Source: Kondoa subrosea
Taxonomy: Eukaryota
DNA: 64,000 nt
Assembly (NCBI GenBank): GCA_039545335.1
Contig: BCIN01000002.1
Coordinates: forward strand, 2,758,678 to 2,822,677
Reading direction: 5' to 3'
The position numbers and the translations under genes were made by a program. The notes under the pieces are model-generated. The model was given only the letters and a program-made list of their open reading frames with translations, made no database searches and was not told the origin of the DNA. Shown piece after piece: positions 32,211 to 40,540 of this stretch. Position 1 is the first letter of the stretch, and every line of letters begins with the position of its first letter.

Positions 32211-32435
32211 GACTTCACGTTTCTTTGCTGACGTCGACCAATTTTAGTTTCCCGAGATTCATAGATACCGTGTCTGTGTCACTGTCTCTCGAGAGCCGTC
32301 CAGCATTTTCCCTTCAGGCTTGTTGCCTCGTCTGTCATCGTTGCGAACTCCAAGCTTCAGTGTGAAACCCATCGCTTGAACTTGACGTCTTGGACTTTCC
32401 TTGAAGGTGTTTGCGAGTACTCAAGTGTACATCTA

Positions 32436-33554
32436 ATGGCTCAGCCAGACAGCTCTCGAATCTGCCTGCTACCTCTAGAGCTTAAGCAGCACATTATCTC
32501 TTACCTTCATGATCAGAATTGGTTGGTTGATATACGGCACATGGCTCAAACGAGCAAGAGCTGGTATGATGCGGTAGTGAAAGATGAAGTGATGTGGAAG
32601 AAGAAAGCGAGAGAGCTAGGCAGTCGTTCAAAGAACAAGCAGGGATGGATGAAACTGTATATGTCATGTTTGAGTCAGGTTTGCTTTAGATGGTAAGTAC
32701 ATATAAGTGAAGGTCTCAATGAATCTGAATCTTCTTTCAGTCATGAAAAGGCTCCTGCTTCGATGCACTATGGTATCGTATCTTGGCTACCGAAGCACAT
32801 TCGAGTTTGTGACAAGTGCCGACATCGAAAAGGACCACTCAAATGTATCACTCACGCCGACGCACTCAAACTGGATAGGCATCTCAACTAACATGATCTG
32901 GACAGTCTGCTCGGTATTGACCCAGGGCGAATAAGCTCACATCCCAAAATAGAGAAGAGAATTTATCTGAAGCAATCTGTTGAACGATACATAAGAAAAC
33001 GAATGGACAAGGAACATTGAGCAAGAGCAGATGCGTTAGACGTTTATATCAAGCTGAAAGAGGATACACTTCGAGAGCTCTATCACACTGTTCCTCCTTC
33101 TCTGGAAGCTGCCTTATCACTTGCAAGGAAGTACCGTCAAGAAGACAAACATTCAATACTTCAAAAGAAGCATATTTATATGTTGGGAATGCAATGCTGC
33201 GAAATATACGACGGTACATATCACGGCACATCTGAACAGCCAATTTGCTCTTCACTTATTCCATCCTTCTTGAAACACTATCATCTTCTTGCCAACGTGG
33301 AAGCGCAAATTATTGAGCAATACAGTCAATAATCTTCGCATCATCTACTGGATACAGCTATGGATTTATTGTCATCCGAAACCCTCATCCGCTCTAACAA
33401 GGGGAAGAAAGACGAAAAGGTTGAATCGCTACCTATGCAAGAATGTTTAGCACTGGAAAAGGTCGATTGGCATCGCTTCGAAGCCAGAGTCTTGAAGCGA
33501 TACGCACCAGAAGAGGGAAGCCCTAGCAGCGAGAAGTCATCAGATTCAGACTGA
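32436..33554 (+). pseudogene. F-box protein with Cys-rich (XPA-like) region, disrupted by three in-frame stops
   Basis: F-box LLPLELKQHIISYL...MAQTSKSWYDAV, then CFRC...RVCDKC. Exon 2 has TAA 32889, TGA 33018 and TAA 33330 in one otherwise protein-like frame ending at TGA 33554. Confidence 0.7.
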
Positions 33555-35396: not shown

Positions 35397-37088
35397 TTAT
35401 ATCCCACCGACAGCCAACCAGATACCGAAAACGAACAACCCAATAAGCCCAACTTGAGATCTGCTAGCAGACGAACCAAGTACGATCGAATAATTTCCTT
35501 CGTCTGTTGCATCTACTTGTTTTGTTCTTGTGTCAGACACAGCGATCGAAGTAGGTTTGCCAGCTAGAGGAACCGCTGCATTGCCTTGAGGAGAGCCTCT
35601 TCCTCGACCACTGCCTCTGTCGGATTGCTGTGATGAGACAGCTTGGTAGTGATCCGAATCGTCGCTAACTATCTGAGCTTGTTCTTGAGCTTGAGGAACA
35701 GGAGTAGCTTTGACAGGTGAAGCAGAAGGTTTCGTGACAGAGGCTTGAGTTTGCTGCGGACCGGCTGCACTGTAAGATCGACCTGCTCCCTTTGCGTTCT
35801 TGAGCTCATCGTCCAATTGAACCACATCATGAAGTTTAGGAGAGAAATTCTTTTCCGGTAAAGCTCGAACTGCTTTGACTGTTCCACCTTTTGTATTGGT
35901 GACATCGTACTGAAAGCAGGTGAGATAGCTACTTCGTTGTCAGTTTCAGGTTGCCATGAAGTGATCAAACGTACTTGATATGAGGCCCTGTCAACTGACC
36001 GGCGCTGTAATCATTCTGAGCCCAAACATCTCCACCCATTCTATAGAGATGATCGATCAGTCGCAGTTGTCTGCGCGGAGACGCGAGCTTACCGACCATC
36101 TTGAGTCAATTGAGTTGAATAATTCATTTTCTGTCAGAGGCATCAGAAATCAAGCAGATCCAGGCTAGACAATGTCATCGTACCCAGCCCCAGACCAAAG
36201 TATGAAGGCTAGTCTCCCAATCTTGCGGTATAGTAAATGTCCCTGAACACATGTACTCGCCGAAAGATCTAAGAAAGATCAGTCCGCTGTACGTATACGT
36301 AGGTAGAGTGCTCACAAAGATCCAAGAAGATCGATACTACAACTGATCTCAGCAAAGATTCTACTTTCGAGGGATTGCACTGACTTGTCTGTATTCTTGA
36401 AGCAATTTCCCCAGTAGAATTCAAGCATAGGAGTAGTAGAGAATAAGTCCTGTTTAGTGAAGAAATCAGCGCCCTCTCAATCCAGGTATAGTATCGAGCG
36501 CACATCATTTGGTTCATTGCTGTTTGCATGCCACAAGAAAGCTTCGACATTCTGTAGCACCAATCAGTCTTCCAACCGTTAGCAAGGCTTGACGCTCACA
36601 TTCACACCAGGTTTACCGGGCGAATCTATCATCAATGATCAGAATCTTCATTCGATACCCAAAATCTACCAAAAGAGCTTACTGATCAGAGCGTGATTAT
36701 TTGCGGGCCAAATTAGAGTCATGTTATCGCCTGCATTCACTTTCAAGGCTGATTTGCCTGCTTGAGCCGTACTGAGACCCTTATTCGTTCCAACCTGATT
36801 CTCAAGCCTTTAGCTAATCATTCAGCATTACCTTGATAGCTTGCGACATACAGTACATAGAGGTCCCTGCTGTTCATGATAATACGAAAAGGTAGTTGAC
36901 AAATCTTCCTGGAGTCAAGAATTAGTAACTGCTTCTACTGAAACACGCGAAGGATATATGAGACTGACATGGAAAGGTTTTGCTTCATCAGCGCATGGAC
37001 CAGATCCATCCCAGTTGACGCAAAGTAAAAGAGAATGAGCATGAGCGTATTGCGATAAAGCAAACACAGCCAGCAAGAAGGACAGCAT
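35397..37088 (-). CDS. Secreted, probably GPI-anchored histidine-brace (LPMO-like) copper protein candidate
   Basis: 11 exons joined by canonical GT-AG introns. Signal peptide ends AHA, mature N-terminal His (HSLLLC), WPANNH, CSGTFTIP...TLVWGW, YLTCFQYDV, then an S/T/Q/P linker and a hydrophobic tail. Confidence 0.75.
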
Positions 37089-37498
37089 CGTCAAGTTTGA
37101 AAGAAGCAGAGAAGACTGGCGAGATGTGGAATGGAGAGACAAGAGCAGGCGGAAATAGAACCAGCTGGTTTAGCGAGTCAGATTTCCGAAGTTTGAGTCT
37201 GTGATTGAACAAGAAGAACCAGAACAAAGGAAAATGGAAATCAATCTCATAGAGTCCCTAGCAGTAGCGAGACAGGAGTTGTATACAACGAGTCAAGGGA
37301 ACAGAGGTCAAAGAGAGTTAGAGAGGGAACGCAACACCCGGGGTTGCAAACGTCTCGGAAGCGTTCAGCGAGGAAGGAGTGAAGCTTATACATATATGGC
37401 TCTATTGGCGCAGGGAATCGAAGAGAGAATAGATCTCGGTGACCGCACTTGGGCAAGCTCTGATTCTTTGGGTGCAGTGAAGTTGATCCATTGCCACG

Positions 37499-38622
37499 AT
37501 GTTCTCCAATTTAGCCCTACTGGCACTCGCAGCCTACACAGCAACAGCAGCACAACAGTCTCCTCTGCTTGGCCTGGCTTCTACGTGCGTCCATTCGCGA
37601 GCTAATGCAGCATTTCTCAATCTCACAATATTTCGCACAGTTCTGGCTCCTGTATCAGCAAGACCCTCTACATCACTCTACCTGGTCTCACTCCTTCAGA
37701 TTTCTCCCTTTTCCCTTCTTCCTCAAGCTTGAAATCACGCTTTGACGCTTCAGAGTCGAGTTCAAGGCTTTGGACTCCTTATGCCTCGACAGATGCGGAT
37801 CAAGAGTTGCAGCAATTTAGGCCTTGTACGGAAATGGAAGAGGAGAGTGTATCATTAGCCGCTCTGAAAGGAAACAGGCAGCAGAGGAAAGAGAATATCA
37901 AAGCGTTAGGTCAGTCTCTGCTGTCTATAGTCGCATGAGTACCGTGCTTATCGGTCAGTACAGATTTAGAAGTCGAACAACTTATCAATGCGCTGCCGGA
38001 AGATTACCTCGTTGTCATTTCTGCTCACCCAAATCTTTCGCGTCGATCATTAAGCAAGAGACAAGAACCGATCTCCGAGACTGAAATTGATGAATTGGAA
38101 GCTATTGAAGCAGCAGAAGAAGCCGAAATCCCTTCCACTTCCGATGTAGAATCACAAGAGGAAGATAACTCAGAAGAATACGTTGCTCAACCTATCGAAG
38201 CTGAAGATATTCTTGACCCAGAACATGAAGAAGTCGATATCAGCGTCACTGCTCCCGATGAATTCACTACAGAAGAAGATCCATTCGATAATCCTTTCCC
38301 TCATGTCCCTGTTGATGAATTTCAACAAGACGACGATCCTCAACCTTCTACTAATGCCACAACCATCGACAAGAACGCAGCTTACATTGCAAGATACTCA
38401 ATTGTCTCTCCAGCTCTCATTTTCGCTTCTCTACTCTTCCTGCTCGTCCTTTTCCCAGCTGTGTTTTTGAGTGTTTCAGCTTTAGGTGCAATGTAAGTTG
38501 GCATGGGCGAGTTTTCAGTCTATATACTGATTCTAGTTCTTGTACAAACTTACAGTGAAGCACCAATGGGTCTCAACTCTAAGATGACAGGTGGTCTTTC
38601 GATGGATAAGAAGGATCAGTAG
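37499..38622 (+). CDS. ER type-I membrane protein, V-ATPase assembly factor Voa1/Ac45(BIG1)-like
   Basis: Signal peptide, acidic lumenal region, ARYSIVSPALIFASLLFLLVLFPAVFLSVSALGAI TM segment, C-terminal KKDQ* (KKxx ER retrieval). Confidence 0.68.
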
Positions 38623-38774
38623 ATGTAGAGCGCTTAGTCACTTGAGAAGGTCACAATGCAATGCTATCATTTGTCCATATTGATATAGTGATCAAAATCC
38701 CAATGCGCCGCATCCGTGCTCATATGCTATTATCCTGATGAGAATGTACCCAAGATAGCGAAGGAATATTGTTG

Positions 38775-40257
38775 CTAGTGTGTTCGATTTGTTGCTAAAC
38801 CGAAAGCCACATGTCGTTTTGACACTACAAGTGATGTCAGCTCGGTGCCTTCCCGTAGACCATGAACAGCACATACCATTCGTTGCCTTGAGTTGTTTGA
38901 AAATAGCTTCCGACCAAAGTTTATGAGCTTGACTAGAAGGATGTCTGTCATCTCCCCAAATATCTGTGCACGCTCTCATCTGTCACTACCACCACAGCGG
39001 AGGACAGAAGCATTTTACGCACATGATGATCTAGGATGACCACATTTCTTATCCACACTCTTATCGATCGTACATTCTCCAGAAACGTATGCTGAGCAAT
39101 ACGTATCAGGACTGATGAAACCATTAGATTTGTAGTCTTTCATGAGGGTATTGAAGAATTTGTCTGCGTCAATTCTAGTCAGTCAATACTTTATAAAAGA
39201 AAGGTTGAAAGCGGACTGGTACTGAACCGAATACATTTGACGCCTGATTTCTTGCAAAAGATGGATTGTTTGCTATAGATGAGGGAATTGAGCTGTTTGA
39301 CTGCCGACTGACCTAACTCATCAGCAACGATACAGATGTAAGCCAATTTTGAGCTGACTGCTAGATTACGCTTGTTTGTAGAAGGAAGCTTCGTCGCCAT
39401 AGGAGCTTTGTCCAAAGGCACAACATCGTTGAACAGGAAAGTCCTTGCACCGGCATTATAGAGCTGTTCGCAAGAGTTCATATATGAAGTAGCCATAGCG
39501 GGATATAAAGTTCTATTTGCTGCTGAAGTATATGTTTGCGTTATCACATTCACTGTACGTCTATCATCAGAGTTGTTCAGGGGAAGAGCGAAAGATGGAA
39601 CGAACCGCCGAAAAGAACAGAAAACAAAGAATTCTTAGATGTCCAAGGCAACTTCTTGGATGGTGTTGCACCGATAAACTTATTGAAAGCTGCTGCTTGA
39701 CCGACAAAGTCGATTTTCTTCGGCATGCCAATGATCTTGTTATCAATGCGAGCTCCATTCTGTCAGATATAATGAGAGACGACTCTGTAAGAGGAATTGT
39801 ATCGTACCTTTGCGAACTATAATATCACAGATTCAGATCAAGTAGGATATATAGAGCTCAGAACTTGCATCAATGACCCGCGGTTGTTTGGGTGACATTT
39901 GCGGGGCGAGCTGCTGAATAAAGTTTGGTCCACCTCCGGTATGAGCTTCGCATGTATAAGGGACCGTCAAGGGAGATTTAACGCCTGTATAAATCCAAGT
40001 CAGGTTCCAAAGCTATACATAGCCAAACAGAACGTATTGCCATCCGTCTTGGGAATAGCTGCAGGAGTGTCAGATGTGCATGTCTGAGGCATTATTGTGC
40101 ATGCACCTATCGCCACTACGAGCAAAGCAGCCAAAGGGTCAGAAATATGTAAATCGACACTTTGAACCCGAACGAACAAAACGAAGAGGTAATCATAAGC
40201 GAGTGACTGTTGATAAAGGAGTGTGGTCAAGAAAAGGAAAGACAGAAAACCAAACAT
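38775..40257 (-). CDS. Secreted GDSL/SGNH esterase (carbohydrate esterase family 16-like)
   Basis: Signal peptide, LFVFGDSYS across a 9-nt exon, LYNAGARTFLFNDVVPLDKAP, WGDDRHPSSQAHKLWSEAI (DxxH). Confidence 0.82.
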
Positions 40258-40540
40258 ATTACTACTGAGGAGGAAAGAGAAAGGACAGGGTCAGAGGTGA
40301 AGGTCAATGCGCAAGGCGATATCTAGCTCTCTATTTGGATAGATCTTGGAGCCGCGCCATACTTGCAAGGCGAACTCAACGAAGGCAAGAGGTTCAGGAC
40401 AAGAAAGCTGTTTCGGTCTAGTTTCTGGTACCCAGGCAAGTATCGACCAAGTATCGAGGTGTCTCTCCCAAACTCTTCTCTTCTGTCTACCATCCTCTCC
40501 TCTCCTCTCATTCTCCATCTCGCGTATCCGGACTTGTGCG

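Follow-up and report, generated by a model that had tools for sequence, protein, structure and literature searches.

A hidden 11-exon gene of Kondoa subrosea predicted to encode a GPI-anchored surface protein with possible likeness to histidine-brace copper proteins

An 11-exon gene on the minus strand

We analysed a 64,000-nucleotide (nt) stretch of contig BCIN01000002.1 of the fungus Kondoa subrosea (GenBank assembly GCA_039545335.1, positions 2,758,678 to 2,822,677), referred to below as the window, and describe a gene on its minus strand between positions 37088 and 35397 whose coding sequence is divided into eleven short exons. The predicted product is a secreted protein with histidine as its first mature residue, a feature that had led an earlier reading of this DNA (the sequence-only reading) to propose a protein related to lytic polysaccharide monooxygenases (LPMOs). 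The surrounding DNA is intron-rich and of eukaryotic fungal type with a GC content of about 45%, and no annotated product was found for the gene. The ATG at 37088 is the first ATG of its open reading frame (ORF), and the frame closes only with ten short introns removed. Joining the exons across these introns, all of them GT...AG and 46-60 nt in length, yields an uninterrupted reading frame of 1170 nt that encodes 389 amino acids. The hidden gene with ten canonical introns that had been proposed is thus recovered when the model is rebuilt from the sequence, and the positions previously given for His18, His93 and Tyr214 are exact, as is the count of six cysteines. The features of the gene are as follows.

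36969..37088, minus strand: exon 1, codons 1-40, with the start codon, signal peptide (residues 1-17), His18, Cys23, Cys32 and the start of the mature domain; its donor GTCAGT is obligatory in 252/252 strict paths
36852..36908, minus strand: exon 2, codons 41-59, with Cys58; codon log-odds of +0.21 per codon; obligatory introns (1 and 2) on both sides
36683..36794, minus strand: exon 3, codons 60-96 plus 1 nt, with His93 in the motif WPANNH
36600..36625, minus strand: exon 4, 26 nt, which restores the frame; both flanking introns obligatory under strict signals
36504..36551, minus strand: exon 5, codons 106-121, with Trp112-His113; His113 is an alternative candidate for the second copper histidine
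36385..36449, minus strand: exon 6, codons 122-142 plus 2 nt, with Cys137
36316..36336, minus strand: exon 7, 21 nt
36184..36268, minus strand: exon 8, codons 151-178, with Cys157 and the motif TLVWGW
36093..36130, minus strand: exon 9, codons 179-190 plus 2 nt
35975..36040, minus strand: exon 10, codons 192-212 plus 2 nt, with His211
35397..35928, minus strand: exon 11, codons 214-389 and the stop codon, with Tyr214, Cys217, the domain end, a low-complexity stalk and a glycosylphosphatidylinositol (GPI)-type signal
37088-37086, minus strand: Met1, start codon
37037-37035, minus strand: His18, predicted first mature residue after A-H-A
36695-36693, minus strand: His93, within WPANNH
35927-35925, minus strand: Tyr214, in a Y-x-x-C near the domain end
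35400-35447, minus strand: hydrophobic tail of the GPI-type signal, residues 374-389
35399-35397, minus strand: stop codon, end of exon 11

Splice signals and coding potential

Closure of the reading frame is in itself weak evidence for the model, as about 1e17 open paths lead from the ATG to the stop if any GT-AG intron of 40-130 nt is allowed. We therefore took splice signals and codon usage, which frame closure does not require, as support for it. All ten introns carry G at position +5 (background for all GT in the window, 0.227) and a pyrimidine at -3, giving a YAG acceptor (window background 0.431). Eight of the ten, all except introns 2 and 6, contain a CTRAY branch motif whose A lies 10-16 nt before the 3′ end; among random stretches of the window matched for length, a fraction of 0.099 have the motif 8-35 nt from their end. 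Defining a full-signal intron candidate as one that carries all three signals (+5 G, pyrimidine before AG, CTRAY branch), the gene contains 11 such candidates with 8 distinct acceptors on its minus strand and none on the plus strand, a density of 6.5 per kb; averaged over the window, each strand has 0.96 per kb.

Codon usage was scored with a log-odds table derived from 38 further ORFs, each 150 amino acids or longer (9112 codons in total). The whole frame scores +78.4 bits against -91.5 and -189.2 in the shifted frames, and the part encoding the domain, taken alone, scores +37.6, its five alternative frames ranging from -67 to -122. Per-exon scores are positive for 10 of the 11 exons, exon 8 being neutral at -0.01 per codon, and only 4 of 30 intron frames score positive. 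Judged by these signals in the sequence, the 11-exon gene is very probably real.

Enumeration of the paths that use strict splice signals and introns of 40-70 nt leaves 252 open paths, and introns 1, 2, 3, 4, 5 and 7 are common to every one of them. The four junctions with alternatives are introns 6, 8, 9 and 10. Intron 6 may take a 42-nt form, a 48-nt form or be absent; an alternative donor at 36096 in exon 9 requires further unlikely introns; and the alternatives other than a donor at 36195 in exon 8 rely on introns of 40-42 nt that have no branch motif. The 48-nt intron 6 is itself stop-free and in frame, such that a single ORF (window 36312-36476, minus strand) spans exon 6, intron 6 and exon 7. 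Its retention would add 16 residues with the frame kept, and skipping of the 21-nt exon 7 would likewise be frame-neutral. The lengths of introns 1 and 2 (36795-36968, minus strand), 60 and 57 nt, are also multiples of three, which places exons 1-3 in one frame, and these introns contain one and three in-frame stops, respectively.

A predicted GPI-tethered surface glycoprotein

Features of the protein were assigned by inspection and standard rules such as the (-3,-1) rule for signal peptidase cleavage. Residues 2-11 make up the hydrophobic core (mean Kyte-Doolittle 2.78), with A-H-A following at residues 15-17, the best (-3,-1) site, cleavage at which leaves His18 as the N-terminus. The alternative cut after Ala15 has a disfavoured Gln at -3 and also results in an N-terminal histidine, in the form H-A-H, which we take to be a copper motif of the ATCUN (amino-terminal copper- and nickel-binding) type. 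His16 (37041-37043) and His18 (37035-37037) flank Ala17, and either cut would leave a potential copper-binding N-terminus.

The mature protein begins with a domain of about 208 amino acids (residues 18 to about 225) containing six cysteines at positions 23, 32, 58, 137, 157 and 217, eight of the nine tryptophans and two N-glycosylation sequons. The Tyr-x-x-Cys motif lies about ten residues before the domain end. A stalk of about 135 residues (approximately 226-360) follows, of low complexity and rich in Ala (13%), Ser (12%) and Gln (10%). The C-terminal 16 residues (374-389) are hydrophobic (mean Kyte-Doolittle 2.39) and run to the end of the protein, preceded on inspection by the small residues G-S-S-A-S at 364-368 and a polar spacer at 369-373. 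By rule, GPI-anchored surface proteins are recognised by an N-terminal signal peptide together with a C-terminal signal in which small residues around the omega site are followed by a short polar spacer and a hydrophobic stretch that ends the chain, and this combination is found here. The signal peptide with histidine directly after an A-x-A site, the low-complexity linker and the GPI-type tail noted in the sequence-only reading are all present in the rebuilt protein, the cleavage site by rule. We consider the product most likely to be a secreted, GPI-tethered cell-surface glycoprotein, as predicted from these features.

Searches for relatives

Searches were run exon by exon with queries of 21-45 amino acids, apart from the last exon of 176, and thus constitute weak tests; the word-based protein searches were in addition limited to proteins longer than the query. 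Within that scope the last exon gave 1517 candidates, none at E up to 0.001, while the exon 3 ORF (8 candidates) and exon 1 (2 candidates) gave none at E up to 10. Metagenome scans with the last exon returned 279 pattern matches, none of which was confirmed. The exon 8 ORF gave at least 596 pattern matches and one confirmed locus (L001), which we rejected as a relative: the match lies mainly in the intron-derived part of the query, and tblastn with the spliced protein reaches a best E of 0.067 with no colinear exons. The best other tblastn match within the window has an E of 0.85, and no paralogue was found there. Literature searches with five six-letter peptide motifs of the protein returned chance word matches only. 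AA18, a newer LPMO family of CAZy, and CelOCE, a metagenome-derived cellulose oxidase, are described in the literature, and neither points to this protein.

An exhaustive phmmer search of a 32-amino-acid stretch containing exon 8 against 1.84 billion representative sequences produced three matches at E ≤ 0.001, all translated tandem repeats, and these were rejected. By this search, a protein roughly 55% or more identical to exon 8 is not among the representatives, and distant relatives are little constrained. The representative library includes translations of tandem DNA repeats (P0002, P0003), for example a short W-rich unit repeated 11-fold, and such entries yield misleadingly strong multi-stretch E-values for short W-rich queries.

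Relatives may exist in sequenced genomes and yet be absent from protein databases because micro-exons hide their genes from annotation, and relatives with the same micro-exon structure are probably missing from predicted proteomes as well. That the sequence-only reading could assign the protein to no named family is consistent with the blank searches of Pfam (six exon pieces), the PDB (five pieces) and protein databases (four exon-wise searches); given the short queries, the protein may yet belong to an existing family.

Evidence bearing on an LPMO-like copper site

Support for an LPMO-like domain comes from the order of its motifs and from a protein language-model atlas of 7.7 million clusters, in which scores below 0.9 are leads only. 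For exon 3 (37 amino acids, containing the histidine of WPANNH) the nearest named clusters are PF03067 (LPMO_10) at 0.81 and, in eighth place, a Basidiomycota AA14 cluster (PF22810) at 0.78, and the ten best family-bearing matches all fall in one family or clan. For the exon 8 stretch (32 amino acids, containing TLVWGW), considering named clusters only, the nearest are PF03067 (LPMO_10) at 0.85 and 0.76. That two non-overlapping exons should both lie near the same small LPMO clan, which the sequence-only reading had put forward from motifs, seems unlikely for an unrelated protein, because LPMO clusters should make up a very small share of the 7.7 million. The order His1, strand-W-x4-His, W-x-W and Y-x-x-C is, we assume, that of AA10, AA11, AA13 and AA15. 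LPMO and LPMO-like proteins have histidine as their first mature residue, a position that His18 takes here by the (-3,-1) rule.

Several results weigh against this assignment. Both exons score below 0.9 in the atlas, where about one third of shuffled proteins also reach 0.8, and the features they share with the matched clusters number 118-153 of 256, compared with 170 typical of true family matches. Six exon pieces searched against Pfam at E up to 10 matched no family, DUF7492 (PF24320) and Egh16-like included, the pieces being short and the HMMER filters losing most matches weaker than about E 0.1. Searches of PDB sequences with five exon pieces retrieved no LPMO, returning just copper nitrite reductases (E 0.34-1) and one unrelated protein (E 1.2). 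The second copper histidine may be either His93 or His113, and the candidate ligands His18, His93 or His113 and Tyr214 are positioned along the sequence rather than in a fold. No relative was found in which conservation of His18, His93 and Tyr214 could be compared. If the donor at 36195 were used instead, exon 8 would end four codons earlier and lose V-W-G-W, and with it the W-x-W motif. The upstream region 37089-37500 contains no Mac1-type copper-response element; across the window this motif occurs 13 times against 13.3 expected, and nothing supports copper regulation of the gene.

What survives of the LPMO-like proposal is therefore two independent sub-threshold atlas leads, from exons 3 and 8, set against the lack of a Pfam, PDB or database relative in the searches above. 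We estimate a probability of roughly 0.5 that the protein is a surface-tethered, LPMO-like copper protein in which His18 and His93 (or His113) form the brace and Tyr214 is the axial residue.

Alternative explanations

Fungi have many orphan GPI proteins with Ser/Ala-rich stalks, and the protein could be a lineage-specific wall or adhesion glycoprotein of another fold, or a plain beta-sandwich, that has no copper site and whose N-terminal histidine is incidental. The tie to copper consists of the motif order and the two sub-threshold atlas leads, and the exon-wise searches found no family, PDB or database relative, all of which this explanation would accommodate. It fits less well with the proximity of two independent exons to LPMO clusters, with a histidine placed exactly at the best A-x-A cleavage site, and with the aromatic-rich W-x-W strand and the Y-x-x-C near the domain end, and we regard it as rather unlikely. 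A separate possibility, which competes with novelty and not with copper binding, is that the protein is a divergent member of a described family, unassignable only through the shortness of the exon queries. Candidates include the PF03067-type AA10/AA15, AA14, AA16, X325/DUF6595, Egh16-like and DUF7492 families; the atlas leads name PF03067 and AA14, and true but weak matches could have been lost to the HMMER filters. On the other side, the exhaustive search with exon 8 gave repeat artefacts only, exons 1, 3 and 11 drew blanks in the word-based searches among longer proteins, and none of the five pieces matched an LPMO in the PDB, which includes structures of the named LPMO families. Membership of a described family therefore appears a minority prospect, about on a par with the copper-free glycoprotein.

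The gene model might also be partly wrong, or the gene an unexpressed pseudogene, in which case some of the protein features would be artefacts of intron choice. No homologue was found against which to check the junctions, the 252 strict paths differ at four introns, exons of 21 and 26 nt are required, introns 2 and 6 have no CTRAY and the codon score of exon 8 is neutral. Six introns are nevertheless obligatory in all of these paths, the splice signals and coding potential are strong and strand-specific, the frame is intact across 389 codons, and the alternatives need either 40-42-nt introns that have no branch motif or weaker donors. We consider such an error improbable.

A possible mechanism

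If the protein is an LPMO-like copper protein, signal peptidase would cut after Ala17 of A-H-A to free His18 as the N-terminus, and the C-terminal signal would be exchanged for a GPI anchor, holding the domain on its stalk at the surface. The domain would be an LPMO-like beta-sandwich binding one copper ion in a histidine brace formed by the amino group and side chain of His18 together with His93 or His113, with Tyr214 of Y-x-x-C in the axial position. By analogy, the presence of a stalk and an anchor and the lack of a carbohydrate-binding module would slightly favour a role on the surface of the fungus itself over the breakdown of plant polymers. That role might consist of copper capture and hand-over as in X325/Bim1, or of oxidative remodelling of the fungus's own wall. 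A bolder suggestion, which we hold to be doubtful, is that the protein is the founding member of an undescribed family of GPI-stalked histidine-brace copper proteins, confined to one basidiomycete lineage, hidden by its tiny exons and marked by the signature His-Ser-x3-Cys, which would place a disulfide cysteine beside the copper site.

Neighbouring genes

A neighbouring gene on the minus strand (38692-40290) had been called a CE16-like esterase and offered as weak context. Four of its ORF pieces have no Pfam match, and the sole PDB match, to cellulose-binding GDSL lipases, is insignificant (E 0.26), so that the assignment was not borne out; an esterase-like neighbour adds nothing to the LPMO-like proposal. 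A divergently oriented neighbour on the plus strand (37487-38496) starts with a stretch resembling a signal peptide, is strongly acidic in its middle part and has a hydrophobic segment towards the C-terminus, with no Pfam match on two ORF pieces. Further away, an ORF piece at 32265-32693 on the plus strand contains an F-box-like domain (PF12937, E 2.2e-08).

Implications

New histidine-brace families, among them AA14-AA17, X325/Bim1 and the Egh16-like proteins, have repeatedly widened the known roles of copper proteins. Should the copper-site proposal hold, a member that acts at the cell surface and has no relatives detectable by sequence would extend this list by one family, and it would open a way into copper uptake or wall remodelling in a fungus that has received little study. 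Should folding reveal no copper site, the protein would be an ordinary orphan GPI-anchored protein. In either case, ORF-based annotation can miss an entire secreted protein when its fungal gene is rich in micro-exons, as here, where two exons measure 21 and 26 nt and the introns 46-60 nt; the same probably applies to automated annotation.

Comparison with known histidine-brace systems

Among described families, the PF03067-type LPMOs (AA10/AA15) supply the nearest named atlas clusters for exons 3 and 8 (0.76-0.85, leads only). Their motifs presumably follow the same order as in this protein: His1, W-x(4-5)-His, W-x-W and then, towards the end of the domain, an aromatic residue with a Cys after it. 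In contrast to the fungal gene described here, the clusters matched consist of fragments from animals or bacteria, and no Pfam or PDB match links these LPMOs to the protein. Some AA15 members are GPI-anchored, as is predicted here, according to passages of PMC8615602. AA14 (PF22810) contributes the Basidiomycota cluster near exon 3, with no match at the sequence level, and the same passages describe some AA14 members with GPI anchors or long C-terminal regions (PMC8615602). DUF7492 (PF24320) was not named by the atlas for exon 3 or exon 8, and a literature search for this family retrieved no paper. The Egh16-like protein TrsA is portrayed, in passages of PMC12377627, as a fungal, secreted and distantly LPMO-related protein with a modelled beta-sandwich, a putative histidine brace and a reported copper-dependent oxidase activity; those passages mention no GPI anchor, and none of the six exon pieces of our protein has a Pfam match.

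In comparison with X325/Bim1 (DUF6595), the exon pieces of our protein have no PDB or Pfam match and no Asp can be named as a fourth ligand. Its N-terminal H-S-x3-C presumably also sets it apart from X325. The architecture is alike. A linker with a GPI anchor is attributed to all X325 proteins and to some AA9, AA14, AA15 and AA16 LPMOs in passages of PMC8615602, and Bim1 is a GPI-anchored histidine-brace copper protein, X325 using Asp as its fourth ligand, in those of PMC10952591. X325/Bim1 proteins have been implicated in copper transport, and passages of PMC10952591 and PMC13353379 report that redox activity is not convincingly shown. As far as these sources describe them (PMC10952591, PMC8615602), X325/Bim1 proteins are fungal, those of yeasts included, have a proposed role in copper handling, and resemble the protein described here in having a signal peptide, an N-terminal histidine, one globular domain, a linker, a GPI anchor and no carbohydrate-binding module.

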